Origin: Thermoanaerobaculia bacterium
Lineage (GTDB): Bacteria > Acidobacteriota > Thermoanaerobaculia > Multivoradales > JAHEKO01
Assembly: GCA_041394745.1 (NCBI GenBank)
Contig: JAWKHP010000003.1
Span: 29,110 to 93,109 of the forward strand
Reading direction: 5' to 3'
DNA: 64,000 nt
Both the position numbers and the translations under genes were made by a program. Position 1 is the first letter of the stretch. Every line of letters begins with the position of its first letter. The notes beneath the pieces are model-generated. The model saw only the letters and a program-made list of their open reading frames with translations, made no database searches and was not told the DNA's origin. This document shows, one piece after another, positions 5,859 to 58,387 of the stretch.

Positions 5859-7296
5859 ATGAGACTCGGAGCTGTTGCCGTCGTTGCGCGACCCTCGTCC
5901 TCGCCGCCACCGGTCCCGCTGCGCCGCTGTGGCCGCGATCTGGGAGGGCGGCACTTCGAACGCCGGGGGACCGGTTGGCTGCAGGTCGAGGCCGACGAGC
6001 TCGTTCGAGGTGCCCGCGGGTGCTCACGGTGCGGTTCCGCGACGGGGTGGAGCGCGCGGCGCAGGATGCGGTGCTGGCCCAGCTCGGCGGCGTCGAGCTG
6101 CGCCGGGCGATCACCGGTTCGTGGACGTCGAGATCGCCGAGGGGCGCGACGTCCTCGACGCCGTGGCGGCCTTCGCGGCCCGCCCGGAGATCGCGGTGGC
6201 CGAGGCCAACACCTTCGGCGCCTACGCGCTGATCCCCAACGACACCCTCTACGGCAGCGAGTGGCACCTGCCTCAGATGCAGGTCGACGACGCCTGGGAC
6301 GTGACCACCGGCTCGACCCAGATCGTCGTCGCGGTGCTCGACTCCGGGACCGAGTTCACCCACGAGGACCTCGGCCTCGGGGTCGACGGCTACCGCAACG
6401 TCTGGCTCAACCCGGGCGAGGACGCCTGGTCGGATCCGACGAACCCGGCCACCGGCAACGGGGTCGACGACGACGGCAACGGCTTCATCGACGACTGGCA
6501 GGGTTGGGACTTCAACAACGGCAACAACGACCCGGCCGGGACCTTCTTCCACGGGACGGCGGTGGCCGGCGTCATCTCCGCGAAGACCAACAACAACCGC
6601 GGTGTTGCGGGAGTGGCGGGGGGCAACGGCGCGCCGGGCGTGAAGGTGCTCCTGGCCGGTGTCGGCGACAGCGCTCCCAACGGCGCCATCCTGGACGACG
6701 CCATCCTGTACGCGGCCGACAGCGGCGCCAGGATCATCCAGCTCAGCCTCACCGTCGGTCAGAGCTCGGCCATCGACGCCGCGCTGGCCATGGCCTACGA
6801 CACGTTCGGCCTGACGATCATCTGCTCGTCCGGCAACGGCGGGACCTCGAGCGTCGGCTACCCGAGCTCCGACTCGCACGTCATGGCCATCGGTTCGACG
6901 GGCATGACCGACCAGAAGAGCAGCTTCTCCCAGTACGGCGTGCTTCTGGAGCTGGCCGCCCCGGGTGAGGGGATCTGGATGCTCGACCTCAACGACGGCT
7001 ACGGGCCGAGCTCGGGCACGTCCTTCTCCTCGCCCAACACCTCGGGCACGGCGGCGCTGGTGCTGAGTCTCGCTCCGACGATGACCAACGCCCAGCTGCG
7101 CCAGCTGCTGCACGACACCGCGGCCAAGGTCGGCGGCTACAACTACAACTGGAACCCCGGCATGCCGGGCCACTCCATGGAGCTGGGCTACGGCCGGGTC
7201 GACGCGCTGGCCGCCGTTCAGGCGGTCCAGGCGCCGATCTTCGAGGACGGATTCGAGAGCGGCGACACCAGCGCGTGGACCACGTCGGCTCCCTAA
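5859..7296 (+). CDS. subtilisin-like S8 serine peptidase with an I9-type propeptide; the N-terminal quarter is split over three frames
   Basis: The catalytic triad is visible (VAVLDSGTE for Asp, HGTAVAG for His, GTSFSSP for Ser) in ORF 5875..7296. Propeptide pieces RVLTVRFRDGVERAAQDAVLAQLGGVELRRAITGS (frame of 5975..6232) and FVDVEIAEGRDVLDAVAAFAARPEIAVAEAN (frame of 5875) imply about two single-base indels near 6030 and 6118. The C-terminus ends ...APIFEDGFESGDTSAWTTSAP*. Confidence 0.65.
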
Positions 7297-19745: not shown

Positions 19746-22700
19746 TCACTCCCAGAACAGCGGCCGGCGCTGGCGGGGGTGGTTGCCGATCTCGTTCATG
19801 GTGGCGGCGTCGTAGAGGCGGCCGCCGACCATGGTGAGGGCGACGGATTCGGTGTTGCGGATGTCGGTCAGCGGGTCGCGGTCGAGGAGGATGAGGTCGG
19901 CGAGCTTGCCGGGCTCGACGGAGCCGAGGTCGGCGTCCATTCCGAGGTAGTGGGCGCCGTTGGCGGTGGCGGCGTGGAGGGCGTCGAGCTCGCCCATCCC
20001 TCCCTGGACGAGCATCCAGATCTCCCAGTGCGCCCCCAGGCCCTCACGCTGGCCGTGGGCGCCGATGTGGACCTCGACGCCGCGGGCGGCCAGCGCCTCG
20101 ACGCCCTCGGCGATGCGGAAGTGGTTGTACTCCTCCTCCGGGGCCAGGACCGGGCGCCGGGCCACCGGGTCGATCTGGTCGGCGGGGACGAAGGAGCGCA
20201 GGCGCTCGTCCTTCCAGACGTCGGTGTGGGCGTACCAGTAGTTCTCGCCCCAGAGACCGCCGTAGGCGACGATCAGGGTCGGCGTGTAGGCGGTGCCGGT
20301 CTGCGGCCACAGCTGCAGCACGTCCTCGTAGAGGTGCTCAAGCGGGATGGCGTGCTCGATGCCGGTGTGGCCGTCGACCACCATGGTCATGTTGTGCTCG
20401 TAGAGCGAGCCGCCCTCGGGCACCACCAGCATGTCGAGCCGGCGCGCGGCCTCGAGGATCTGCTGACGCTGATCGCGCCGCGGCTGGTTGTAGCTCTTGA
20501 CGCTGAAGGCCCCGGCGGCCTTCATCCGCCCGAGGTGGAAGAGCGCATCGTCGAGGCTGTCGATCTCGGCCTTGTAGGCGGGACCCGCGGCGCCGTAGAG
20601 GATGGTGCCGGTGGAGAAGAGCCGGGGCGCGGTGATCAGGCCGGCGCGAGCCATCTCGGCGGCGGCGAAGAAGGTGCTGGTGTCCGTGGACGGATCGTGG
20701 ATGGTGGTGACGCCGAAGCCCAGCGCCGCCAGGTGGAACCAGTTCTGCTGCGGCACGATCTCCTCGAACCCCTGGGAGCCGTGCCAGTGGACGTCGACCA
20801 GCCCCGGCATCAGGGTGCGCCCGGCGGCGTCGACGACCGCGGCGTCGGCGGGCACGTCGACCTCGTCGCGGGGGCCGACGGCGACGATGCGGTCACCCTC
20901 GACGAGCACCGTCGCGTCGTCGAGGACGGTGTCCTCGGCGTCCATCGTCAGCACGCGGGCGCCGACGAAGGCGACGCTGCCGGAGGGCACGTCCTTCTCG
21001 ACCGTCATCCCCAGCCGGGTCTCGGCGATCTGCGGCTCGGCCTCCGCACCCTCCTCCGCGGCCGGAGCGTCGGAGAGGAAGGCGAAGGCGTCGTCGAGGG
21101 GCCGCGTGTAGAGGGTGTTGCCGAGCGCCCAGTGGAGCCGCGCCGAGTCGCCCGACCAGTGCAGGTACTCCCCGGCCTCCTCGGAGACCTGCTCGACCGG
21201 GAAGCTCTCCGTGCCCGGACCCACGGCGACCGGCTTGCCGGTCACCGCGAAGGGGGCGACGAAAGCCTTGAAGCGTTCCGTGAAGGCGACCCAGCGGCCG
21301 TCGGGCGACACGTTCCACTCGAGCGCCGCCTCGCTGGTGAAGTGCTCGCGCTCGGCGCGCTCCTCGCGCGATCCGGTGAGGCCGACGCTCTTGAGCGCCC
21401 GGCCGTCCTCCCCCTCGAAGGTCATGAAGAAGACGCGCGAAGAGTCGGCACCGAAGTGCGGGCGGACGCCGTCGGCGGAGATCAGCTCGCTCGCGCCCCC
21501 GGCGGCCGGCACGCGGTAGAGACCGGTGTCGCGGCCGTAGAGGTCCTTGGAGAGGAAGCCGCCGCTGGTCTTGCGGTAGACGACCGTGGAACCGTCGGGG
21601 GAGAGCGCCGGCTCGACGTAGTGGCCCGGCGTGCCGGTGACGACGCGGCCCTCGGCCGCGCCCGCCACCGGCGCGATGCGCACCGCGCCGAGCTCCTCGT
21701 CGTCCCAGGAGACGAAGACCACGGAGCGGCCGTCGCGCGAGAACGACGGGTAGAGCTCCCAGTGGTCCGTCTGCGTGGTGAGGCGGTGGGGCGCGCCGTC
21801 TGGCAGCTCCTGGATCCAGATCCTGCCGAGCGTCTGGTAGAGAGCGCGGTCGCCGTCCGGGGAGACCTCCACCCAGCGCAGCATCTTGGTCTCGAAGGTG
21901 TCGGGCGCCGCCTCGCGCGCCGACCAGACGGTGGGGGAGACCCGGTGCGTCTGGTGGACGTGGAACGGGATCTCGACCGGCTCGCCGCTCTCGACATCGA
22001 CGCGGCGGATCTTGCCGCCCGCCCAGTAGACGAGGGAGCGCGAGTCCGGCGTCCAGGCGAAGTTGGCGTACACGCCGTGGATGGCCCAGGTCTCCTGATG
22101 GTCGCGGTCGAGGCCGTCGGCCACCTGCCGGATGGCGCCGCTGGCGACGTCGGTCACGAAGAGGGCGGTACCGTAGCCGCCGTCCTGCCGCCGTCCGACG
22201 AAGGCCAGCCGGCTGCCGTCCGGCGAGGGCGTCGGTCGCACCGCGCCGCCGGCGCGAACGACGAAGGGCTCGACCTCGCCGGTCGTCCGGTCGAGGCGCG
22301 AGATGCGATAGATGCCGCCGTGCGGGTCCTTGTTGTACTCGAACACCGGGCCCGGCGTGGCGTCGTGGCTGTAGTAGACGTAGCGCCCGTCGGGGGAGAA
22401 GGCCGGCTCGCCGAGGTCCTTCTGGTCGTTCGGCTTCTCGGTCATCTGCAGGCCGCCGCCGCCCGAGCGGTGGTAGAGCCAGATCTCGCCGGCGCCGAGC
22501 GAGCGCGTCGAGGTGAAGTGCTTGCGCGCCGCCAGGTACTCGCCGTCCGGGCTCCAGACGGCGTTGTTGAGGAGGCGGAAGTCCTCGTCGGTCACCTGGG
22601 TCGTCTCGCCGCTGGCGCGGTCGAGGATCCAGATGTTGTCGCCGCCGCCGGCGTCGCTGGTGTAGGAGATGGAGCGTCCGTCCGGGGAGAAGCGCGGCTG

Positions 22701-23084
22701 CATGTCCCACTGCATGCCGCTGGTGAGCGCCGTCGCCTCGCCGCCCGCGATGGGCAGAAGGTAGAGGTCACCCAGGAGGTCGAAGACGATCTCGCTGCCG
22801 TCGGGGGAGACGTCGAGGTTCATCCAGCTGCCCTCGGTGACGTCGATCGTCACCTCGCGCTCCTCGCCCGGCGGGTCGGCGACGTCCCAGGCGTCCTTCT
22901 CCTCCTCGCCGCTCTCCCGAGCGGTCTCGGCAGCCGCCTCCATCGTGCCGGTGCCGTCCTCGTCGGGCAGGCGCGCCGCGGACTGCCCTTCGGCACGGCT
23001 CTGCATCCGCCACTCGGCCGCGCCCAGAGGAAGAGCCAGGTGGAGTACGACGGCGATCGCGAGGGTCCGGGACAGTGTGCGCAT
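19746..23084 (-). CDS. TolB-like beta-propeller (WD40/PD40 repeats) fused to a C-terminal amidohydrolase domain, secreted
   Basis: The Met gives MRTLSRTLAIAVVLHLALPLGA. Repeated SPDG...LYxxx propeller blades are followed by an amidohydrolase domain (DVHWHGSQG...HDPS...). It is intact over 3.3 kb. Confidence 0.8.
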   Translation of the reverse strand: MRTLSRTLAIAVVLHLALPLGAAEWRMQSRAEGQSAARLPDEDGTGTMEAAAETARESGEEEKDAWDVADPPGEEREVTIDVTEGSWMNLDVSPDGSEIVFDLLGDLYLLPIAGGEATALTSGMQWDMQPRFSPDGRSISYTSDAGGGDNIWILDRASGETTQVTDEDFRLLNNAVWSPDGEYLAARKHFTSTRSLGAGEIWLYHRSGGGGLQMTEKPNDQKDLGEPAFSPDGRYVYYSHDATPGPVFEYNKDPHGGIYRISRLDRTTGEVEPFVVRAGGAVRPTPSPDGSRLAFVGRRQDGGYGTALFVTDVASGAIRQVADGLDRDHQETWAIHGVYANFAWTPDSRSLVYWAGGKIRRVDVESGEPVEIPFHVHQTHRVSPTVWSAREAAPDTFETKMLRWVEVSPDGDRALYQTLGRIWIQELPDGAPHRLTTQTDHWELYPSFSRDGRSVVFVSWDDEELGAVRIAPVAGAAEGRVVTGTPGHYVEPALSPDGSTVVYRKTSGGFLSKDLYGRDTGLYRVPAAGGASELISADGVRPHFGADSSRVFFMTFEGEDGRALKSVGLTGSREERAEREHFTSEAALEWNVSPDGRWVAFTERFKAFVAPFAVTGKPVAVGPGTESFPVEQVSEEAGEYLHWSGDSARLHWALGNTLYTRPLDDAFAFLSDAPAAEEGAEAEPQIAETRLGMTVEKDVPSGSVAFVGARVLTMDAEDTVLDDATVLVEGDRIVAVGPRDEVDVPADAAVVDAAGRTLMPGLVDVHWHGSQGFEEIVPQQNWFHLAALGFGVTTIHDPSTDTSTFFAAAEMARAGLITAPRLFSTGTILYGAAGPAYKAEIDSLDDALFHLGRMKAAGAFSVKSYNQPRRDQRQQILEAARRLDMLVVPEGGSLYEHNMTMVVDGHTGIEHAIPLEHLYEDVLQLWPQTGTAYTPTLIVAYGGLWGENYWYAHTDVWKDERLRSFVPADQIDPVARRPVLAPEEEYNHFRIAEGVEALAARGVEVHIGAHGQREGLGAHWEIWMLVQGGMGELDALHAATANGAHYLGMDADLGSVEPGKLADLILLDRDPLTDIRNTESVALTMVGGRLYDAATMNEIGNHPRQRRPLFWE

Positions 23085-23248
23085 GCGCTCCTCCGGGAGA
23101 CTCAGATCCGGCCGTGACCGGAAACAGGAAAGTGAGGGATCGAGCGGGATTATCTCAGGCCCGAGGCGCGGGGGTGGCGACGGCCCTGGCGCCCGCCGGC
23201 GGATCGGTCCAGACTCTCGGAGCCGGGACGTCCTCCCGGTCCCACACC

Positions 23249-24316
23249 ATGGAGCCGTCTCCCTCCGGATCCGAAGACCGAGCCAGGGGTGCCGTGCGTC
23301 GGGTCCTCGGCCGCTTGGCGCTCGTCGTCGGCGTGACGCTGGCGCTCCTCCTCCTGCTCGAGGCGCTGATGGCCCTGACCGGCTCCTACGAGCCGAATCC
23401 ACCCCTCTATCCCGGGGACGTCGAGGCGGTGAGCGATGCGACGACGGATCCCGACGTCGGGTGGCACCTGCCGCCGGGGGTGGTCTCGCGCGAGGAGACG
23501 GTCGACTACCGGATGCGCTACCGGGCCAACCGCCAGGGCTTCCGCGACCGCGAGCCGGAGGCGCGGCCGGGCCGGTGGAGGATCGCCTTCCTCGGCGACT
23601 CCTACACCTTCGGCAGCGGGGTCGAGCTGAGGGAGACGTTCGTCCGGCTGATCGAAAAACGGCACCGCGGCGTGCGCACCGACAACTTCGGCATCGGGGG
23701 GTTCGGAGTCGACCAGATGTGGGCGACGCTGCGTCGCTACGCGCTGGGCGTCTCGCCGGACGTCGTCGTCCTCTGCTTCATCCACTACGACCTCGATCGC
23801 AGCTTGACGGCGTACCGCGAGGGGCACGCGTGGCTGGCCAAGCCGACCTTCAAGCTGGCGGACGGCTCCCTCCGGCCGCTGACTCGCGCCGACCGGCCCA
23901 CCGGCCTCGCCGGCTGGCTCGAGCGCCGCTCGCACCTCGTCGAGCTCTGGCGCCGCGCCACCTTCGGCCTCGAGCGCACCCTCCCGGTCGGCTACCGCTG
24001 GCGCCTCAACCGCGCCCTCTTCGCCGCCGTGCGCGACGACTGCCGCGCCGCCGGCATCCCCCTGGTCGTCGTCCACATCCCGGTCAACCGCGCCGCCCCG
24101 GCGCCCTCCTTCGCCCGCGAGATGAAGAGGCTGGGCATCGCCTACCTCGACCTCCAGCCCCTCCTCCCCGACGACTTCACCCCCCTCTACTTCCCCCACG
24201 ACCGCCACTTCACCCCGGCCGGCCACCGCTGGGCCGCCGACGCCATCGACGCCTTCCTCGAAGAGCGGGGCCTGCTCGGTCCACCGGCCCCAGTGTCGCC
24301 CGGACCGGAGCGGTAG
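23249..24316 (+). CDS. SGNH/GDSL-family hydrolase with an N-terminal TM anchor
   Basis: MEPSPSG... with the TM segment LALVVGVTLALLLLLEALMAL, the GDSL block FLGDSYTFGSGV, and a C-terminal DRHFTPAGHRW (DxxH). Confidence 0.6.
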   Translation: MEPSPSGSEDRARGAVRRVLGRLALVVGVTLALLLLLEALMALTGSYEPNPPLYPGDVEAVSDATTDPDVGWHLPPGVVSREETVDYRMRYRANRQGFRDREPEARPGRWRIAFLGDSYTFGSGVELRETFVRLIEKRHRGVRTDNFGIGGFGVDQMWATLRRYALGVSPDVVVLCFIHYDLDRSLTAYREGHAWLAKPTFKLADGSLRPLTRADRPTGLAGWLERRSHLVELWRRATFGLERTLPVGYRWRLNRALFAAVRDDCRAAGIPLVVVHIPVNRAAPAPSFAREMKRLGIAYLDLQPLLPDDFTPLYFPHDRHFTPAGHRWAADAIDAFLEERGLLGPPAPVSPGPER

Positions 24317-27117: not shown

Positions 27118-28590
27118 TCAGTTGGCGGTCGTCGTCCAGTGACTCGTGTCGCCGCTCTCGAACCCGTCGAGGAAGAACGCGCCTTCGCCGGCCCACGGAC
27201 AACCCTCCCCGTTGTGGATGCAGGCGATGCGGCTGCCCGCTCCAACCACGACGTAGAGCTCACCGAGGTGGTCCTCGGCGAACCCGTAGGTCCCCGAGAA
27301 CCCGCTGGCCCAGCACTGGGCGTTGATGGCCGCCGGGTTGGCGGGGTTGAGGGTGGTCGTCTTCCAGATCTGCCCGCAGGCCGCGTCGCTGTAGAGGTAG
27401 TCCCCCGCGATCGAGGGCACCTCGGTGCCACGGTAGCGGAAGCCCCCCATGACCGAGGCCCAACCGCCGTTGTGGTGGCAGAGGATGGGATCCCAGAAGC
27501 CGCTCGAGCGCGGGAACTCGCAGGTCGTACCCGGGTCCACCGGGCAGCCGGTCACCGAGCAGCCGGACTCGTCGTTGTTCGACGTCTCGCACCCTTCACG
27601 GCACGACCATCCGAAGTTCACGGGCGCGGCGAGGGCGGCGCGCTTGAGGTTGATCTCCTCCCACTTGTTCTGACCCACGTCGCCGATGTAGAGGTCGCCC
27701 GTCGTCCGGTCGAAGCTGAAACGGAACGGGTTGCGCAGCCCCATCGCCCAGACCTCGTCGCAGGCGGGATCCTGACCGAAGAACGGGTTGGTGGACGGCA
27801 CCGTGTAGTTGCTCGGCTCGCCCGTGGCGTCGCAGTCGTCCGGGGGGCCGCCCAGCGGGTCGATTCCGCGCACGTCGATGCGCAGCATCTTGCCGAGCAG
27901 GGTGGTGTTCTGCTGGCCGTCGCCGTTGATGCCCTGATTGCCGTCACAGCCGCCGCCGCCGTCGCCGATCGAGATGTAGAGGAAGCCGTCCGGGCCGAAC
28001 GCCATGTTGCCGCCGTTGTGGTTGCTGGCGGAGGAGTGCTCGATGACGAGGATCTTGGTCGCGGACCCCGGGTCGGCCACGTCGGGGTTCCCGGCCGAGC
28101 GCTCGTAGCGTTCGATGACGACGTCGCCCAGCGTGCCGCCGCCGAGGTCGCGGCGGGTGTAGTAGACGTAGAAGCGTCCGTTGGTCACGTAGTCGGGATC
28201 GGCCACCATCGAGAGCAGACCGCGCTCGCCGCCGAAGGAGACCGGCCCGCCGCTGCTCTGGCGCAGGTCGAGGAACATCGTCGGCAGGATCTCGCCGGTC
28301 CCGCCGTCCCAGACGAGGATCGCCCCCTCCTGGGTGGCGATGAGGCGCTTGCTCCGGCCGTCGTTCGGATCCACGAACGAGATCGGCGTGTTGGCGCCGC
28401 TCGGGAAGTCCGACGGACCGACGATGTTCGTGATTCCGACCGGAGCGCCCGGCGTGCAGGTCGTGCCGCACGACACGTTGAAGCAGCTCGTCGCGCCGTG
28501 AGCCGGTGCCCCGAGGAGGGCGGCGGCGAGGACGGCGGAGACGGGGACGAGGAAACCGGCGAGCCGGCGATGGGCGGTCGAGAACGTCAT
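27118..28590 (-). CDS. PQQ-dependent sugar (glucose/sorbosone) dehydrogenase-like beta-propeller protein, secreted
   Basis: The Met at 28590 gives MTFSTAHRRLAGFLVPVSAVLAAALLGAPAHG. Motifs GLLSMVADPDY, NHNGGNMAFGPDGFLYISIGDGGGG and GLRNPFRFSFD are present. It ends ...GAFFLDGFESGDTSHWTTTAN*. Confidence 0.7.
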   Translation of the reverse strand: MTFSTAHRRLAGFLVPVSAVLAAALLGAPAHGATSCFNVSCGTTCTPGAPVGITNIVGPSDFPSGANTPISFVDPNDGRSKRLIATQEGAILVWDGGTGEILPTMFLDLRQSSGGPVSFGGERGLLSMVADPDYVTNGRFYVYYTRRDLGGGTLGDVVIERYERSAGNPDVADPGSATKILVIEHSSASNHNGGNMAFGPDGFLYISIGDGGGGCDGNQGINGDGQQNTTLLGKMLRIDVRGIDPLGGPPDDCDATGEPSNYTVPSTNPFFGQDPACDEVWAMGLRNPFRFSFDRTTGDLYIGDVGQNKWEEINLKRAALAAPVNFGWSCREGCETSNNDESGCSVTGCPVDPGTTCEFPRSSGFWDPILCHHNGGWASVMGGFRYRGTEVPSIAGDYLYSDAACGQIWKTTTLNPANPAAINAQCWASGFSGTYGFAEDHLGELYVVVGAGSRIACIHNGEGCPWAGEGAFFLDGFESGDTSHWTTTAN

Positions 28591-39614: not shown

Positions 39615-40799
39615 TCAGGGCGCGACGACGCTCCAGGCGGAGGTGTCGCCGGTTTCGAAGCCGTCGGCGAAGACCAGCGGCCTCGCCACGGCCACCTTGA
39701 GGTCGAGGTCGCCATTGTCGAAGTAGCTCACCACCGGGAGGCCGTCGGCTCCGAGGACGATCGACGTGAAGTAGCCGACGTCCCCGGCGACGTCGACGGT
39801 CTGCAGGGTGGCGGCGGAGCACGCGGCGTCCGCACACCAGGCGACCTCGAGATCGCCGTTCGTCACGTCCGTGTAGCTCACGATGGGCAGGCCCCCGGCT
39901 CCGCGGACGATCGAGGTGTACTGCCCGACGTCCTCGATGCCGTCGACGGTCACCGAGGAGGCGGACGCGCAGCTCGCGTCGTCGCAGTGCGCCACCTTGA
40001 GATCGAAGCCGGTCGAATCCAGGTAGCTGACGACCGGCAGGTCATCGGCGCCGATGGCGATCGCCGTGTAGGCGCCGACGTTGCCGTCACTGTCGACGGT
40101 GTGCCGCTCGGCGGAGGCGCAGAGGAGATCGCCGCAGTGCGCCACCTTGAGGGCGTTGTTGCCGTAGTCGCGGTAGCTGATGACCGGCAGCCCATCCGTG
40201 CCGATGGCGATCGAAGTGTTCTGTCCGACGTCCGGGCCGTCGTCGACCACCTCGAGATGGGCGGAGGTGCAGGGCACGTCGGCGCAGTGCGCCGCCTTCA
40301 ACGTGCCGTTGTCGAGGTCCAGATAGCTGATGATCGCGAGCCCGTCGATCCCGATGGCGATCGAGGTGTGGAAGCCCACGTCACCGGCGCTGTCGAGGGT
40401 GGTGAGGGTGGCCGTCGAGCACGCGACGTCCTCGCAGTGCGCCACCCGGAGATCGTTGGCGGCAGCGTCGAGGTAGCTGACGATGGCGAGCCCGTCGGTG
40501 CCGACGGCGATCGAGGACTCGAACCCCGGATCGCCCTGGTCGTCGATGGTGTGCAGGGTCCTCGTAGCGCAGAGGGGATCGTCGCAGTGGGCGATCTCGA
40601 GCGTGGAGTGGGTGAAATCGCGGTAGCTCACGATCGGCAGCTCGTCCGCGCCGAGGGCGATCGAGGTGTAGCCCCCTACCGCGTCGGCGCCGTCGACGAT
40701 GCCGATTCGCCAGGCGGGCAGCCGAGCTCCACCGCGGGCCGCCGTGGCCGCTGCTGCAAGGATCAGGCAGGCGATCCGAAACGTCCGTCGAGGATCCAT
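39615..40799 (-). CDS. secreted repeat protein with about eight 44-aa beta-propeller-like repeats, each carrying a CxDxxC motif
   Basis: The signal peptide is MDPRRTFRIACLILAAAATAARGGA. The repeat unit is VDxxGDVGxYTSIAIGxDGLPxVSYxDxxNxxLKVAHCxDxxCxxA. The protein ends ...LVFADGFETGDTSAWSVVAP*. Confidence 0.6.
   Translation of the reverse strand: MDPRRTFRIACLILAAAATAARGGARLPAWRIGIVDGADAVGGYTSIALGADELPIVSYRDFTHSTLEIAHCDDPLCATRTLHTIDDQGDPGFESSIAVGTDGLAIVSYLDAAANDLRVAHCEDVACSTATLTTLDSAGDVGFHTSIAIGIDGLAIISYLDLDNGTLKAAHCADVPCTSAHLEVVDDGPDVGQNTSIAIGTDGLPVISYRDYGNNALKVAHCGDLLCASAERHTVDSDGNVGAYTAIAIGADDLPVVSYLDSTGFDLKVAHCDDASCASASSVTVDGIEDVGQYTSIVRGAGGLPIVSYTDVTNGDLEVAWCADAACSAATLQTVDVAGDVGYFTSIVLGADGLPVVSYFDNGDLDLKVAVARPLVFADGFETGDTSAWSVVAP
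39660..40720. repeat. about 8 tandem coding repeats of 132 bp inside the repeat-protein gene
   Basis: The repeat units have near-identical lengths and recurring codons (gtcgac...ggcgacgtcggc...agctacctcgac). They are coding repeats, not CRISPR. Confidence 0.5.
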
Positions 40800-50725: not shown

Positions 50726-54004
<3,279 letters not shown>

Positions 54005-54142: not shown

Positions 54143-57100
54143 CTAGTTGGCGCAGATGGCGATGTCGTCGACGCCGGCCTCGATCAGGTCGCCGCTGGCG
54201 GTGCCGTCGGAGGCCTGGACGCGGAAGCGGACGCTGGAGCCCGCCGGGACCGCGGTGGTCGCCTCGGTCCACGCGGCGTTGCTGGTGACGTCGCCGAGGG
54301 AGACCATCGGGGTCCAGGTCGAGCCGCCGTTGGTGGAGATCTCGAGGCGGAAGAAGTCGCCGCTCGGATCGCCGCCGGCGTCGCGCTGGCCGTGGAAGTA
54401 CCAGACCGAGACGTCGGACGACTCGCTCACCGGGTAGACCGGCGACAGCGCGATGCAGTTGCCGCCGTCGACGTCGTCGGTGCCCGCCGCCGTGTTGACG
54501 GCGGTGAAGAAGGCGTTGCCCGTCCCGGTCGTGTGGTCGCCGCCGACCTGGGTGACGACCCCGCCGTTGGTGACCTGGGTGGGCGTGCCGACGACGAAGG
54601 CACCGGTCGTGCAAGTGCTGGAACCGCTGTTGGTCCAGCCCTCGGCGCCGCCGCTGAAGTGCGCGTCGACGCTGCACGCGGAGGCCGTTCCTCCGGTCAC
54701 CACGACGTCGTCGACGAACCACCCGGTGAAGTTGTTGAAGGAGCCGTCGATCGAGTCGAAGCGGAACCGGATCTGGATGTCGTTGCCGGCGAAGGCGGCG
54801 AGAGAGATCGGTCCGCTGGAGACCCAGGCGGCGGTCGAGGCGTTGGTGGAGTCACGCGACCACACCGTCGTCCACGAGCCGCTGCCGGCCACCGAGACGG
54901 CGACCTGCGTCTGGTCGAAGGAGCCTCCGGCGTAGGACTCGACGACCCGGTAGTAGTCGAACGAGAGCTCCGAGGAGGCGGTGACTCCGCTGATGGCCGG
55001 GGAGATCAGATCGCCGGTGGTGTCGCCCGCGTTGTAGGTGCAGGTGGAGTTCTGACCGTAGTAGACCGACGAGACCGGGGAGGAGTAGCCGGGGCTGGCG
55101 CAGCCGGAGCTCGACACCAGGTGCCACAGGCCACTCGTGGTCCAACCGGAGAGACCGCTCTCGAAGTCCTCTTCGAACGGGTTGCCGCCGCCGGCCGGCG
55201 TGATCGTGATGCCGATCGCGTCGGAGTCGGAGAGGCCGCCGGAGTCGGTGACCGAGGCGGTGATGGTGTGGCTGCCGATCGAGAGTGAGCTGGTGGAGAA
55301 CGAGGCCCCGGAGCCGATGGCCCCGTCGAGGCTCGAGGTCCACGACAGGCTCGAGGAGAGCGGACCGTCCTCGGCGTCCGTGGCGGTGCCGCTGAACGAG
55401 ATCGAGCTGCCGACGACGAAGGAGGCACCGTTCGACGGTGCGGTGATCGTCACGCTCGGCGGCGTGTTGGACGCACCACCGCCGGTGACGACGACGTCGT
55501 CGACGAACCACCCGGTGAAGTTGTTGAAGCTGCCGTCGATCGAGTCGAAGCGGAAGCGGATCCGGATGTCGTTTCCGGCGAAGCCGGCGAGGGAGATCGC
55601 ACCGCTGGCGGCCCAGGCCGCGGTCGAGGCGTTGGTGGAGTCGCGCGACCAGACCGTCGTCCACGAGCCGCTGCCGGCCACCGAGACGGCGACCTGCGTC
55701 TGATCGTAGGAGCCTCCGGCGTAGGACTCGACGACCCGGTAGTAGTCGAACGAGAGCTCCGAGGAGGCGGTGATGCCGGTGACGACGGGCGAGATGAGGT
55801 CACCGGTGGTGTCCCCCGCGTCGTACGTGCAGGTCGAGTTCTGACCGTAGTAGAGCGAGGAGACCGGTGAAGAGTAGCCGGGGCTGGCGCATCCGGAGCT
55901 CGAGACCAGGTGCCACAAGCCGCTCGTGGTCCAGGCCCCGAGGCCACCCTCGAAGTCCTCGTGCAGGCGCTCGCCGCCCGCCGAGGTGATGGTCACGCTG
56001 ATCGAGTCGGAGCCCGAGGCGCCGCCCGAGTCGGTGACCGAAGCGGTGATGGTGTGGGTGCCCACCGACAGCGAGCTGATGGAGAACGACGCGCCGGAGC
56101 CGATCGAGCCGTCGCGACTCGAGGTCCAGGAGAGGCTCGAGGAAAGCGGGCCGTCCTCGGCGTCGGTGGCCGTCCCCGCGAACGAGACGGACGCACCCTC
56201 GGCGAAGCTGGAACCGTCGGCCGGGGCCGTGATCGTCACCACCGGGGCCTGATTGACCGGTCCGCCGCACCCCGGAATGCTGAAGGCGCCGACGTGGGTG
56301 CGCCAGGAGGCGCTGCTGGTCGAGGCCAGGTACTCGGTGGTGAACCAGAAGGTGCAGTCGTCCGCCGGGTCGAGCTCCATCGAGGCGTAGTCGCCCCAGC
56401 GCGCGGCGCTGTGGGTCTGTGAGCCGCCGCCGGCGAGCAGCACGGACTCGGCCTCGAGCGTGCCGAGGGGGTCGCCGGCGTCGCGCGTGGCGTAGTAGAT
56501 CGACGGGAAGTTGCTGGCGTTGCCGCGGCTGTAGCCGAGCGCGATGTTGCCGGAGCCGTCCATGGCGATGGAGGGCATCCAGCGGTGCACGGCGTCGGGC
56601 GAGTGCGTGCCCTGCTGATAGAGGGTCCAGCCCGCGCCGGTATCGCGCAGCTCGAACCAGCGCGGAGCCGCCCGGTTGCCGGTGGAATTGACGTCCACCG
56701 TCCAGGCACCCACGAGGGTCTCGTGACTGCCGAAGTTGCGATAGACGAGGCGCTGCATCGGCCACCACGAGGCGCTGTCGATGCCCTGGCTCGTGCCGGG
56801 CTGCGGGATGCAGTTGGAGACGAAGAAGCCGCACACGGTCCAGTTGAAGTTGGCGAGCCCCTGGCTCGGAGTGATCGAGCGCACGAGGCTGATCGAGGAG
56901 CTCGACGGGGTGTTCCAGTCGACGTGGAACTCGTAGACGTCGAGCGAGTCCGTCGCCGGGGAGCCGAAGTAGGGCTCACCGCCGTCCCGGAAGCTGTAGA
57001 ACGTTCCGGGCCTGTTGGCCGGCGGCGGCGTGGCGCCGTCGGAATCGGCGGGCATCATCAGGTTGGGGAAGCTCTGGAAGAACTGCATCGGCCGCGCCGT

Positions 57101-58387
57101 CTGCCCCGCGATCATCCGCGCGCGGTCGATGGCGAAGACGTCGTACTGGTTCTGGGAGCCGGAGTTGGTGCCCATGAAGTACGCGTTGTTGTTCGCCGCC
57201 GGCCAGACACCGAGCTTGAAGTAGTCGGGGAATCGCGGGGTGACGACCTCGTAGAGGTACCAGGAGCCGGTGGGGTCGGGGGTCTGCGAGACGGCGAAGC
57301 ACACCGACTCGTTGTTGTTCGAGACCGCGAACTGGGAGAGGACGAAGCGGTTCGCCTGCTGGTCGTAGAGGGCGATCGCGTCGCCGTCGTTGAAACTCTG
57401 GCACGGTCCGCCGAAGCCCGACCACAGTGAGCTGGTGTTGGTCGGGCCGGTGAGCTTGGTGCCGCTCTTGTCGTAGATGGCGAAGGAGAGGTTGACGACC
57501 TGGATGTAGTGGTTCGGACCGACCGTTCCCTCGGTGTCGGGAGGCAGCACGCCGTTGACGTTGTTGATGCCCTCGAAGTCGAGCGACAGGGAGGGCGTGC
57601 GGCCGGGGGCCTCTGCGCCCGGACCGGCGAGGACGTCCTCGGACTTCGGGGCGGTGGTACCGAAGAGGTTGCCGTTCTCGTCGAAGAGGGTCTCGTGGCG
57701 CAGCTCGTTGACCTCTTCGCCGCGGTCCTTCAGGGTGCCGGTGACGGCGAGCGGCAGGTCGCGGACGGGGAGGGAGAGGCGCGGCCCGAGCACCGGCACC
57801 TCGAAGGGCCGGCGCCGGGTGCCGTGGTCGTTGCGGTCACCGCGCGTGCCGCCGCCGTCGGCCATCGGTCGCAAGATGGCGGCCTGGACGGCGCTCGCGC
57901 CGCCGGGGATCCGGTATCCCTCGAAGTGCGGCCCGGGGGCGCCCGGCGTGCGGACTCCCGCGGCCACCAGCACGGACTCGAGCGTGTGTCCCGCCGGGAG
58001 GATGCCCACGCGCGGCCCGTAGGCCAGGCCGTCCAACGTGAGCTCGAGCTCGACCTCGGGGCAGGCCGCGAAGACGTCCTGCAGGGAGGCGAGCAGGCTG
58101 CCGGGGGCGGCCTCACCGCGGCCGAGATCGATCGAGAAGTCGCCATGGCGCATGGTGGTCGGCGGCAGGGTCTCGGCATAGAGCTCCGCCCCCTCGGGGT
58201 CGAAGTAGCGGGCCGTGACCGAGACGGTGCCGTCGAGCGGCTGGCCCGCGGCGTCGAGCGCCCGACCGCGGTAACCGAGATGCTCGGGTACCGAGACGGC
58301 CGCGACCGGCAGCGCGCCGAACAGGAGGATGCAGGCGGCGGTCGCCGCCCACGCGCTCAGGGGAGCTCTCGAGGTGCAACGGATCAT
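54143..58387 (-). CDS. giant secreted multidomain protein (1413 aa): N-terminal region, propeller-like domain, two tandem PKD/Ig-like plus MAM/LamG-like jelly-roll modules, and a C-terminal MAM-like domain
   Basis: The Met at 58387 (ggagaa RBS) gives the signal MIRCTSRAPLSAWAATAACILLFGALPVAAVSV. The Ig-like region reads ITAPADGSSF...ITASVTDSGG. The jelly-roll region starts EDFE(G/S)GL(G/S)(A/G)WTTSGLWHLVSS...FDYYRVVESYAGGS...FRFDSIDGSFNNFTGWFVDDVVV. The gene is intact over 4.2 kb. Confidence 0.7.
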   Translation of the reverse strand: MIRCTSRAPLSAWAATAACILLFGALPVAAVSVPEHLGYRGRALDAAGQPLDGTVSVTARYFDPEGAELYAETLPPTTMRHGDFSIDLGRGEAAPGSLLASLQDVFAACPEVELELTLDGLAYGPRVGILPAGHTLESVLVAAGVRTPGAPGPHFEGYRIPGGASAVQAAILRPMADGGGTRGDRNDHGTRRRPFEVPVLGPRLSLPVRDLPLAVTGTLKDRGEEVNELRHETLFDENGNLFGTTAPKSEDVLAGPGAEAPGRTPSLSLDFEGINNVNGVLPPDTEGTVGPNHYIQVVNLSFAIYDKSGTKLTGPTNTSSLWSGFGGPCQSFNDGDAIALYDQQANRFVLSQFAVSNNNESVCFAVSQTPDPTGSWYLYEVVTPRFPDYFKLGVWPAANNNAYFMGTNSGSQNQYDVFAIDRARMIAGQTARPMQFFQSFPNLMMPADSDGATPPPANRPGTFYSFRDGGEPYFGSPATDSLDVYEFHVDWNTPSSSSISLVRSITPSQGLANFNWTVCGFFVSNCIPQPGTSQGIDSASWWPMQRLVYRNFGSHETLVGAWTVDVNSTGNRAAPRWFELRDTGAGWTLYQQGTHSPDAVHRWMPSIAMDGSGNIALGYSRGNASNFPSIYYATRDAGDPLGTLEAESVLLAGGGSQTHSAARWGDYASMELDPADDCTFWFTTEYLASTSSASWRTHVGAFSIPGCGGPVNQAPVVTITAPADGSSFAEGASVSFAGTATDAEDGPLSSSLSWTSSRDGSIGSGASFSISSLSVGTHTITASVTDSGGASGSDSISVTITSAGGERLHEDFEGGLGAWTTSGLWHLVSSSGCASPGYSSPVSSLYYGQNSTCTYDAGDTTGDLISPVVTGITASSELSFDYYRVVESYAGGSYDQTQVAVSVAGSGSWTTVWSRDSTNASTAAWAASGAISLAGFAGNDIRIRFRFDSIDGSFNNFTGWFVDDVVVTGGGASNTPPSVTITAPSNGASFVVGSSISFSGTATDAEDGPLSSSLSWTSSLDGAIGSGASFSTSSLSIGSHTITASVTDSGGLSDSDAIGITITPAGGGNPFEEDFESGLSGWTTSGLWHLVSSSGCASPGYSSPVSSVYYGQNSTCTYNAGDTTGDLISPAISGVTASSELSFDYYRVVESYAGGSFDQTQVAVSVAGSGSWTTVWSRDSTNASTAAWVSSGPISLAAFAGNDIQIRFRFDSIDGSFNNFTGWFVDDVVVTGGTASACSVDAHFSGGAEGWTNSGSSTCTTGAFVVGTPTQVTNGGVVTQVGGDHTTGTGNAFFTAVNTAAGTDDVDGGNCIALSPVYPVSESSDVSVWYFHGQRDAGGDPSGDFFRLEISTNGGSTWTPMVSLGDVTSNAAWTEATTAVPAGSSVRFRVQASDGTASGDLIEAGVDDIAICAN
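54702..56280. repeat. intragenic tandem duplication, 2 x 789 bp at about 93-95% nucleotide identity (encodes the duplicated PKD+MAM module)
   Basis: 'acgacgtcgtcgacgaaccacccggtgaagttgttgaag' occurs at 54702 and again at 55491. The alignment continues for about 790 bp with scattered substitutions. Confidence 0.7.

Follow-up and report, generated by a model that had tools for sequence, protein, structure and literature searches.

Three unrelated exported proteins encoded in a 64,000-nucleotide stretch of Acidobacteriota DNA (a Thermoanaerobaculia bacterium, contig JAWKHP010000003.1; hereafter the window) – an S8 protease, a PQQ sugar dehydrogenase and a repeat protein – end in the same ~20-residue tag, which is a specialised stand-alone copy of the segment that starts lectin-like jelly-roll domains. 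The window tags read ΦFxDGFE[ST]GDTSxW plus five residues and then stop. The tag occurs across a whole bacterial lineage and looks like an undescribed protein address label; no Pfam or NCBIfam model, PDB entry or paper describing it was found. A preliminary description had noted that the three tags parallel the starts of jelly-roll modules in a giant protein of the same window and end exactly where the domain body would continue, and this observation is confirmed by our analysis. Its interpretation – that the tag evolved from or mimics the first strand of the fold, suggesting strand complementation or docking to a jelly-roll receptor, rather than three independent losses of a domain – is only partly supported. 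The features are listed in the table.

Table. Positions (nucleotides of the window) of the giant protein, its jelly-roll modules and the C-terminal tags.
Feature	Position	Strand	Sequence	Description
Giant exported protein	54143..58387	-		1414 aa from the ATG at 58387; signal peptide, unassigned ~700-aa region, [Big_7/PKD + MAM-like module] x2, C-terminal MAM-like module 3
Module 1	55478..55972	-		MAM-like jelly-roll, residues ~806-970
Module 1 start motif	55898..55966	-	LHEDFEGGLGAWTTSGLWHLVSS	
Module 2	54689..55183	-		MAM-like jelly-roll, residues ~1069-1233; 86% identical to module 1 over the aligned segments
Module 2 start motif	55109..55177	-	FEEDFESGLSGWTTSGLWHLVSS	
Module 3	54146..54676	-		Terminal jelly-roll family, residues ~1238-1414; ends AGVDDIAICAN plus stop
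Module 3 start motif	54617..54664	-	AHFSGGAEGWTNSGSS	
Tag A	7237..7296	+	IFEDGFESGDTSAWTTSAP plus stop	Ends the S8 subtilase gene (ORF 5875..7296; the start is uncertain)
Tag B	27118..27177	-	FFLDGFESGDTSHWTTTAN plus stop	Ends the glucose/sorbosone dehydrogenase-like gene (27118..28590; signal peptide)
Tag C	39615..39674	-	VFADGFETGDTSAWSVVAP plus stop	Ends the repeat (propeller-like) protein gene (39615..40799; signal peptide)

The giant protein carries three homologous MAM-like jelly-rolls, each starting with [DE]xF[ES]xGxxxW[ST], together with Pfam Big_7/PKD matches at residues 715-800, and residues ~200-715 have no sequence relative in the PDB. An AF2 model of module 1 (pLDDT 82.7) gave Foldseek top hits to the neuropilin-1 MAM domain 5l73 (E 8.7e-7, TM 0.60), meprin MAM and InhA2, although the sequence of module 1 matches the Pfam InhA-like_MAM model only weakly (E 0.009; 15.9 bits against a cutoff of 26.9). 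Its homologues P0121, P0124 and P0127 (P numbers denote individual proteins, L numbers tag-bearing genomic loci) do carry PF20773 in precomputed hits, and a domain at L006 scores 35.5 bits. Module 3 belongs to a family with no Pfam model (70 homologues, none with a Pfam family), but is homologous to modules 1 and 2 (hhalign probability 90.9%, E 1.2e-6, with the FExGxxW segments aligned). In the module 1 model the motif comprises strand b1 (ERLHE), a confidently packed loop (DFEGGLGAW, block pLDDT 91), and a two-residue bridge (TT), and the tags end five residues after the Trp, just before b2 (WHLV).

The significance of the resemblance – set beforehand as a test against shuffled controls – depends on the method used. 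Raw Smith-Waterman scores are weak to moderate, being reached by 1/500, 22/500 and 232/500 shuffles for tags A, B and C, respectively, and are not significant for tag C or for the consensus, although the best hit of every tag falls exactly on the start of module 2; a strict tag HMM does not hit the giant protein. In contrast, a profile of 43 domain starts from homologues, containing no tags and no window sequence, scores the window tags at 19.3, 12.5 and 8.9 bits and 114 other tags at a mean of 12.7, whereas shuffled tags average -2.0. A score of 12.6 or more, the median for the tags, occurs in 1/2340 shuffles and in 1/8424 natural internal 25-mers, and that single 25-mer is itself an internal tag. 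The match also extends to the upstream hydrophobic-F and the downstream W-[ST], and a chance or convergent resemblance of a short, compositionally biased motif is thus largely refuted and very unlikely. The loop between G and W is, however, one residue longer in the tag (four residues against three) than in the modules of the giant protein.

The tag is not a local truncation. A degenerate DNA scan of species-representative genomes returned at least 130 copies at no fewer than 119 loci in 72 assemblies, and 100 of the 119 loci were labelled Thermoanaerobaculia, Holophagae or Acidobacteriota. Of the 130 matches, 116 have a stop 11-19 codons after the Asp and 74 have it at exactly 16, five residues after the Trp as in the window tags; about nine end right at the Trp, and overall 0-8 mostly polar residues follow it. 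Conservation extends outside the search pattern, with F at -2 in 107/114, I/L/V at -3 in 105/114, S at +11, and V-P at +14/+15. One hundred tagged ORFs fall into 52 clusters, including S8, BNR, beta-helix, FG-GAP, GSDH and Vps10-like families, and at least 60 have signal-peptide-like N-termini. A tag profile matches 5098 representative proteins at E<=1e-3.

Orthologues in other genomes keep the tag rather than a domain: the 63%-identical orthologue of the S8 protease at L045 does so, as do those of the dehydrogenase at L002 (71% identity) and L103 (64%). None of the 120 best homologues of the repeat-protein body carries the tag, so it is a modular addition there. Codons vary synonymously, with Ser encoded by both TCN and AGY, indicating selection on the peptide, and the genes downstream of the window tags start within 42-118 bp or overlap, leaving no room for a shifted domain. 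Although a few proteins carry the motif followed by a long C-terminal region (L055, P0237), the distance to the stop, the same in 74 of 130 copies, and the tag-specific tail and position 7 (see below) also refute decay remnants or assembly artefacts, and three independent truncations are not the explanation, as had been proposed.

The tag is a copy of the N-terminal b1-plus-loop segment of jelly-roll domains (MAM-like, PF14099, CBM_4_9, NTTRR-F1), with which it shares the motif hydrophobic-F-x-D-x-F-E-x-G-x(3-4)-W-[ST], but the modules of the giant protein are not its closest relatives. Polysacc_lyase PF14099, CBM_4_9 PF02018 and NTTRR-F1 (NF033675) jelly-rolls have the same loop length, and hundreds of full-length domains begin with F-A-D-G-F-E-S-G-D-L-S-A-W, identical to the tag at 12 of 13 positions; internal copies mark position 1 of PF14099 and position 3 of CBM_4_9. 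These domains continue into a body of ~150-290 aa, which the tags lack. The tags have also diverged from domain starts, with the core-facing Leu/Phe at position 7 replaced by Thr in 31 of 47 tags and a tail of S-x-T-V-P-COOH in place of the continuation into b2, which argues against simple insertion into a canonical jelly-roll core. In homologues of the giant protein's modules (P0121, P0122, P0129, P0131 and P0202) the tag sits right after a complete module and aligns column for column with the first strand of module 3.

We therefore favor, with a probability of about 0.5, the interpretation that the tags are copies of a self-contained C-terminal module, [ILV]-F-x-D-G-F-E-[ST]-G-D-T-[ST]-x-W-S-x-[TV]-V-P-COOH, which Thermoanaerobaculia and Holophagae attach, after a short Pro/Gly-rich linker, to many unrelated Sec-exported proteins. 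In this view it is an orphaned and then specialised copy of the segment that begins concanavalin-like jelly-roll domains, of which the giant protein's modules begin with a more distant version, and most likely acts after export as an address or handle. It would be unstructured on its own protein and recognised in trans by an envelope component – either a beta-sandwich receptor or a processing/sorting enzyme – deciding whether the cargo is retained, displayed or released. The existence of the tag, its register relative to the stop codon, lineage distribution, peptide-level conservation, modularity, tandem copies, retention in orthologues and sequence relationship to domain starts are demonstrated here, whereas recognition in trans, the partner, and the destination of the cargo, including any effect on localisation or cleavage, are inferred from sequence and prediction alone. 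Several findings weigh against this interpretation: no partner, processing enzyme or conserved neighboring gene was found by neighborhood clustering of the 119 loci or in the window, and a minority of copies are internal or N-terminal (L037, L046, L055 and L080), so a free C-terminus is not obligatory. An AF2 model of P0122, which leaves the tag disordered (pLDDT <50) in cis, is in favor of the interpretation, but rests on a shallow alignment of 16 sequences and is weak evidence.

[quoted passage not shown] It is consistent with the correspondence to b1 and the loop, with the tag's occupying the place of the first strand of module 3 in P0121, P0122, P0129 and P0131, and with tandem copies 20-24 aa apart in several small proteins (P0251, P0245, P0230 and P0235), which resemble duplicated docking units; strand donation between jelly-roll proteins reportedly has precedent in TasA and archaeal bundling pili/cannulae. 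However, all three modules of the giant protein have their own intact first strand, the longer loop does not match them, the Thr at position 7 of most tags would lose a core contact, no strand-deficient acceptor has so far been identified, and the AF2 model of P0122, itself weak evidence, does not dock the tag in cis. A cis-acting cap without a partner – protecting against carboxypeptidases through the terminal Val-Pro, aiding folding or solubility, or forming a small Ca2+-binding acidic/aromatic hairpin – is unlikely: the conserved terminal Pro, the acidic and aromatic composition, the flexible linker and the lack of an identified partner are compatible with it, but near-invariance of 10-12 residues across unrelated cargo folds is more than a generic cap needs, tandem and internal copies argue against end protection, and some copies lack the VP tail.

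A more speculative possibility, to be held only tentatively, is that the tag is a natural docking peptide, with Thermoanaerobaculia and Holophagae using an orphaned jelly-roll first strand, without any membrane anchor, to attach or route many different exoenzymes by beta-strand addition to a dedicated beta-sandwich receptor or scaffold at the cell envelope. This would be a new class of protein sorting/anchoring system, analogous in logic to dockerin-cohesin or SpyTag-SpyCatcher, and if binding in trans were confirmed the tag and its receptor would be a new natural peptide-protein docking pair. Acidobacteriota are abundant in soils and sediments and secrete many hydrolases, yet their sorting of exported proteins is poorly understood, and a short TM-less tag shared by diverse exported proteins offers a concrete entry point. 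The tag shows how a fragment of a common fold can be detached and reused as an autonomous signal, and its recognition would improve annotation, because these tails are currently unmodelled and their domain-start look-alikes can mislead domain boundary calls.

Comparison with other systems shows both similarities and differences. Dockerins are likewise small C-terminal handles on diverse exoenzymes, with a beta-sandwich partner as the candidate partner of the tag would be, and comprise two ~22-aa Ca-binding repeat segments in a ~60-70-aa module; the window proteins carry a single 20-aa unit, and the tandem units elsewhere, though at a similar spacing, lack the dockerin sequence pattern, EF-hand-like Ca loops, helices or any model match, and no cohesin-like partner was identified. 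In donor-strand systems (chaperone-usher pili, TasA fibres, archaeal bundling pili/cannulae) a terminal strand-like extension related to a beta-sandwich strand is donated in trans, as the tag could be, but these polymerise identical subunits that have a groove, whereas here unrelated cargo proteins carry the strand. The PEP-CTERM/exosortase, GlyGly-CTERM/rhombosortase, MYXO-CTERM/myxosortase and LPXTG/sortase signals (PMC1569441, PMC3237569, PMC11980579) similarly lie at the extreme C-terminus of many unrelated exported proteins, in particular lineages and in many copies per genome. However, well-characterised short C-terminal sorting signals have a transmembrane helix and a basic tail, and this tag has neither, which also counts against an address function. 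One protein (L080) has the tag upstream of a TM-plus-RLKER ending, showing that the two elements are distinct. The T9SS C-terminal domain is also an address on diverse secreted enzymes, but is a folded 70-100-aa beta-sandwich; the window tags have no NCBIfam hit at E<=10, and Pfam scans of the full-length proteins show nothing over the tails. A module-3-like domain is nonetheless followed by the tag in P0202 and by a T9SS sorting domain in P0203 from Latescibacterota, such that the two occupy equivalent positions.

The giant protein has a signal peptide, and Pfam recognises only Big_7/PKD Ig-like domains in it. Two near-identical modules of ~165 aa (86% identity over the aligned segments) start with LHEDFEGGLGAWTTSGLWHLVSS and FEEDFESGLSGWTTSGLWHLVSS, and a third, C-terminal module starts with AHFSGGAEGWTNSGSS. 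Three other genes end in the short tag, encoding an S8 subtilase (protein A), a glucose/sorbosone-dehydrogenase-like (GSDH) protein (protein B) and a repeat protein (protein C). Proteins B and C have clear signal peptides, but the subtilase ORF has no obvious one at its listed TTG start, and the true start may lie elsewhere or there may be a frameshift upstream. Downstream genes begin within 42-118 bp of the tagged genes or overlap them, so no shifted remainder of a domain can follow any tag. A tricorn-type protease homologue (PD40 propellers, Tricorn_C1, PDZ_Tricorn, Peptidase_S41) lies next to the giant gene and a second giant, of PD40-amidohydrolase type, is also present; the region is rich in exported peptidases, although no link between these and the tag was shown.

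Coordinates of the genes and domains discussed in the text
Feature	Coordinates	Strand	Size or boundary
Giant protein	54143..58387	minus	1414 aa
Module 3 of the giant protein	54146..54676	minus	
S8 subtilase (protein A)	5875..7296	plus	ends at 7296
Glucose/sorbosone-dehydrogenase-like protein (protein B)		minus	stop at 27118
Repeat protein (protein C)	39615..40799	minus	394 aa
Tricorn-type protease homologue	50726..54004	plus	
PD40-amidohydrolase giant	19749..23777	minus	

The modules are MAM-like jelly-rolls, with the motif as their first element. AF2 of module 1, using a 16-sequence alignment, gave a mean pLDDT of 82.7 and a pTM of 0.82, and a Foldseek search of the PDB with the model returned MAM domains first – neuropilin-1 5l73 (E 8.7e-7), meprin alpha/beta, B. 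anthracis InhA2 and gingipain cleaved-adhesin domains. The Pfam InhA-like_MAM model is matched only weakly (15.9 bits against a cutoff of 26.9), although several homologues carry it. In one of the tagged loci, L006 (Thermoanaerobaculia SMAG_U1361), the match to this model in the C-terminal 209 aa (E 9.5e-9) runs to residue 205 of 209, which is into the tag that follows the domain, and the C-terminal end of that Pfam model may therefore include a next-domain start.

Module 3 belongs to a family of 70 database proteins with no Pfam family. In 57 of these the family ends the protein with GIDD-x-x-[IV]-C plus 0-3 residues; it is sometimes in tandem, three Cys are invariant in a 20-sequence alignment, and it could itself be a terminal sorting or adhesion domain. 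A MAFFT alignment of modules 2 and 3 with all homologues placed the module 1/2 family onto module 3 and was not used for structure prediction, but the homology that it hinted at was tested properly with hhalign, which links the two families with a probability of 90.9% (E 1.2e-6) and with the FExGxxW segments aligned. A PDB sequence search found no relative of the N-terminal region of the giant protein. In the model of module 1, ERLHE is strand b1, DFEGGLGAW is a confidently modelled loop (block pLDDT 91), TT forms a short bridge, and WHLV is b2. Aligned to this, a tag covers b1, the loop and the bridge and stops just before b2, in agreement with the preliminary description, in which the tags were said to stop where the domain body would continue.

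Whether the resemblance exceeds chance against shuffled controls – a test proposed with the preliminary description – depends on the method used. Smith-Waterman scores of tags A, B and C (those of proteins A, B and C) on the giant protein were reached by 1, 22 and 232, respectively, of 500 shuffles of each tag, such that only tag A is clearly significant. However, the top hit of every tag was exactly the start of module 2, and the starts of modules 1 and 3 were among the next hits for tags A and B. A strict HMM built from 114 genome tags gave no meaningful hit to the giant protein, but this model is over-specific because 11 columns were fixed by the DNA pattern used to collect the tags. The fair test is the reverse one, in which a profile was built from 43 domain starts taken from homologues of modules 1/2 and 3, with no tags and no sequence from the window. 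This profile scored the three window tags at 19.3, 12.5 and 8.9 bits and 114 other tags at a mean of 12.7 bits, whereas shuffled tags averaged -2.0 bits. A score of 12.6 or more occurred in 1 of 2340 shuffles, 3 of 1053 untagged natural C-termini, and 1 of 8424 natural internal 25-mers, the last of which was itself an internal tag. The similarity is therefore real, and chance resemblance is very unlikely. The loop is one residue longer in the tag, but some domain starts, in the homologues P0148, P0154, P0199 and P0200, have the longer loop too.

The tag is a lineage-wide module and not the product of three local truncations. A degenerate DNA pattern for DGFE[ST]GDT[ST]xW, scanned over one genome per GTDB species, matched at least 119 loci from at least 72 assemblies, and 100 of these 119 loci are labelled Thermoanaerobaculia (including Multivoradales and Sulfomarinibacteraceae), Holophagae or Acidobacteriota. 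Of 130 matches, 116 are followed by a stop within 11-19 codons, and 74 by a stop at exactly 16. Positions that were not part of the pattern are conserved, with I/L/V at -3, F at -2 in 107 of 114, S at +11, V-P at +14/+15 before the stop, and a Pro/Gly-rich stretch at -7 to -4. Codons vary synonymously, with Ser using both TCN and AGY, so selection acts on the peptide. One hundred tagged ORFs fall into 52 sequence clusters, including S8 proteases, BNR/sialidase-like, beta-helix, FG-GAP, Vps10-like and GSDH proteins and an HExxH-containing protein with no Pfam hit, and at least 60 have a signal-peptide-like N-terminus.

Orthologues in other tagged loci keep the tag, as seen for protein A against L045 (63% identity) and for protein B against L002 (71%) and L103 (64%), and truncation artefacts are the least likely of the explanations considered. 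In contrast, none of the 120 best homologues of the repeat body of protein C (P0001-P0120) has the tag, so it is a modular addition in protein C; an exact look-up of protein C in the assembly index found it not on record. No Pfam or NCBIfam model matches the tags, and a PDB sequence search found no relative (best E 0.42, WD40 chance hits). Literature searches for the motif and for C-terminal sorting in this lineage found nothing relevant.

Homologues of the giant protein's own modules show both states at the same position. In P0121, P0122, P0129 and P0131 a complete MAM-like module is followed by a Cys-containing linker and the tag, whereas in the giant protein and in P0123 the same place holds the first strand of module 3, and MAFFT aligns the two column for column. 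P0202 has module 3 followed by the tag, and the Latescibacterota protein P0203 has a module-3-like domain followed by a T9SS sorting domain. A profile of seven tags, searched over 1.84 billion representative proteins, found 5098 proteins at E<=1e-3, and the top-scoring ones are large proteins in which F-A-D-G-F-E-S-G-D-L-S-A-W recurs every ~190-300 residues. Pfam places these copies at profile position 1 of PF14099 (Polysacc_lyase), as in a PF14099-type domain with its FADGFESGDLSAW start, and at position 3 of CBM_4_9, and NCBIfam places them at positions 4-28 of NTTRR-F1. These families, rather than the MAM-like modules of the giant protein, are the closest full-length relatives, because they share the loop length of the tag.

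The tags are also specialised. Among 148 sequences retrieved from that search, domain starts (n=220) have Leu or Phe at position 7 in 182 cases and Thr in 15, and continue W-[TS]-x-x-x-G into the domain, whereas C-terminal tags (n=47) have Thr in 31 cases and end S-x-T-V-P. Several small (~140-190 aa) exported proteins (P0251, P0245, P0230 and P0235) consist of a small N-terminal domain plus two or three tandem tags 20-24 residues apart. A few copies among the tagged loci are not terminal: in L046 the tag is followed by a PTPPP linker and another domain, in L055 by a ~220-aa region ending GSVYFDDF, and in L037 it lies directly after a signal peptide. In L080, a multihaem-like protein of a Holophagae MAG (CAWDGW010000008.1), the tag (LLFGDGFETGDTSAWSTVIP) is followed by ALFGDGP, a hydrophobic TM helix and RLKER at the C-terminus, which is a PEP-CTERM-like anchor, and the tag and a membrane-anchor signal can therefore coexist in one protein. 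The unit thus behaves as an autonomous short module derived from a domain start, and it is not a decaying domain.

The preliminary observation – that the C-terminal tags resemble the first strand of the jelly-roll domains in the giant protein – is confirmed. Its interpretation is supported in part: the evolutionary reading, in which the tag derives from the N-terminal strand of this fold, is upheld and generalised, but docking to a jelly-roll receptor stays a hypothesis. AF2 of P0122 (Ig, MAM-like module and tag) models the folded domains well but leaves the tag at pLDDT <50 with no secondary structure, which fits a linear motif that needs a partner, although the alignment is shallow. We favour, with a probability of about 0.5, a post-Sec address or handle that would be recognised in trans; the relationship of the tag to domain starts and its spread as a module rest on the sequence analyses, whereas its recognition and its role as an address are inferred. 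Strict fold complementation of a strand-deficient jelly-roll is attractive and has precedent in TasA and archaeal pili, but is doubtful because the modules of the giant protein are complete, the loop length differs, and the core-facing residue is lost in tags. A purely cis-acting cap is less likely still.

No conserved neighbour or machinery was found near the tagged genes. Among 119 loci only abundant regulatory families turned up, namely Ser/Thr kinase (STK)-AAA-TPR proteins in 14 and ECF sigma factors in 7 (e.g. L062 and L025), which probably just reflects how abundant these families are in Acidobacteriota, and a Pfam search of ten genes in the window found no secretion or sorting machinery. 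The tag shares the genomic logic of the PEP-CTERM, GlyGly-CTERM and MYXO-CTERM signals (PMC1569441, PMC3237569, PMC11980579), but lacks their defining TM helix and basic tail. It is far too small for a T9SS CTD and is not a dockerin, and from the sequence alone we also rejected an OMP beta-signal (there is usually no terminal aromatic), a PDZ class-I ligand (the terminal residue is Pro) and a colicin TolB-box-like motif. We regard it as an apparently undescribed form of C-terminal address tag, a kind of signal that is otherwise known. The repeat family of protein C carries other conserved C-terminal endings in other lineages, with 44 of the 120 homologues ending in R[RGPK]R, typically as HCSNxFCxP[YF]xRRR, and six ending in SPWW[IV]xGGR; these may be further unexplained C-terminal signals.
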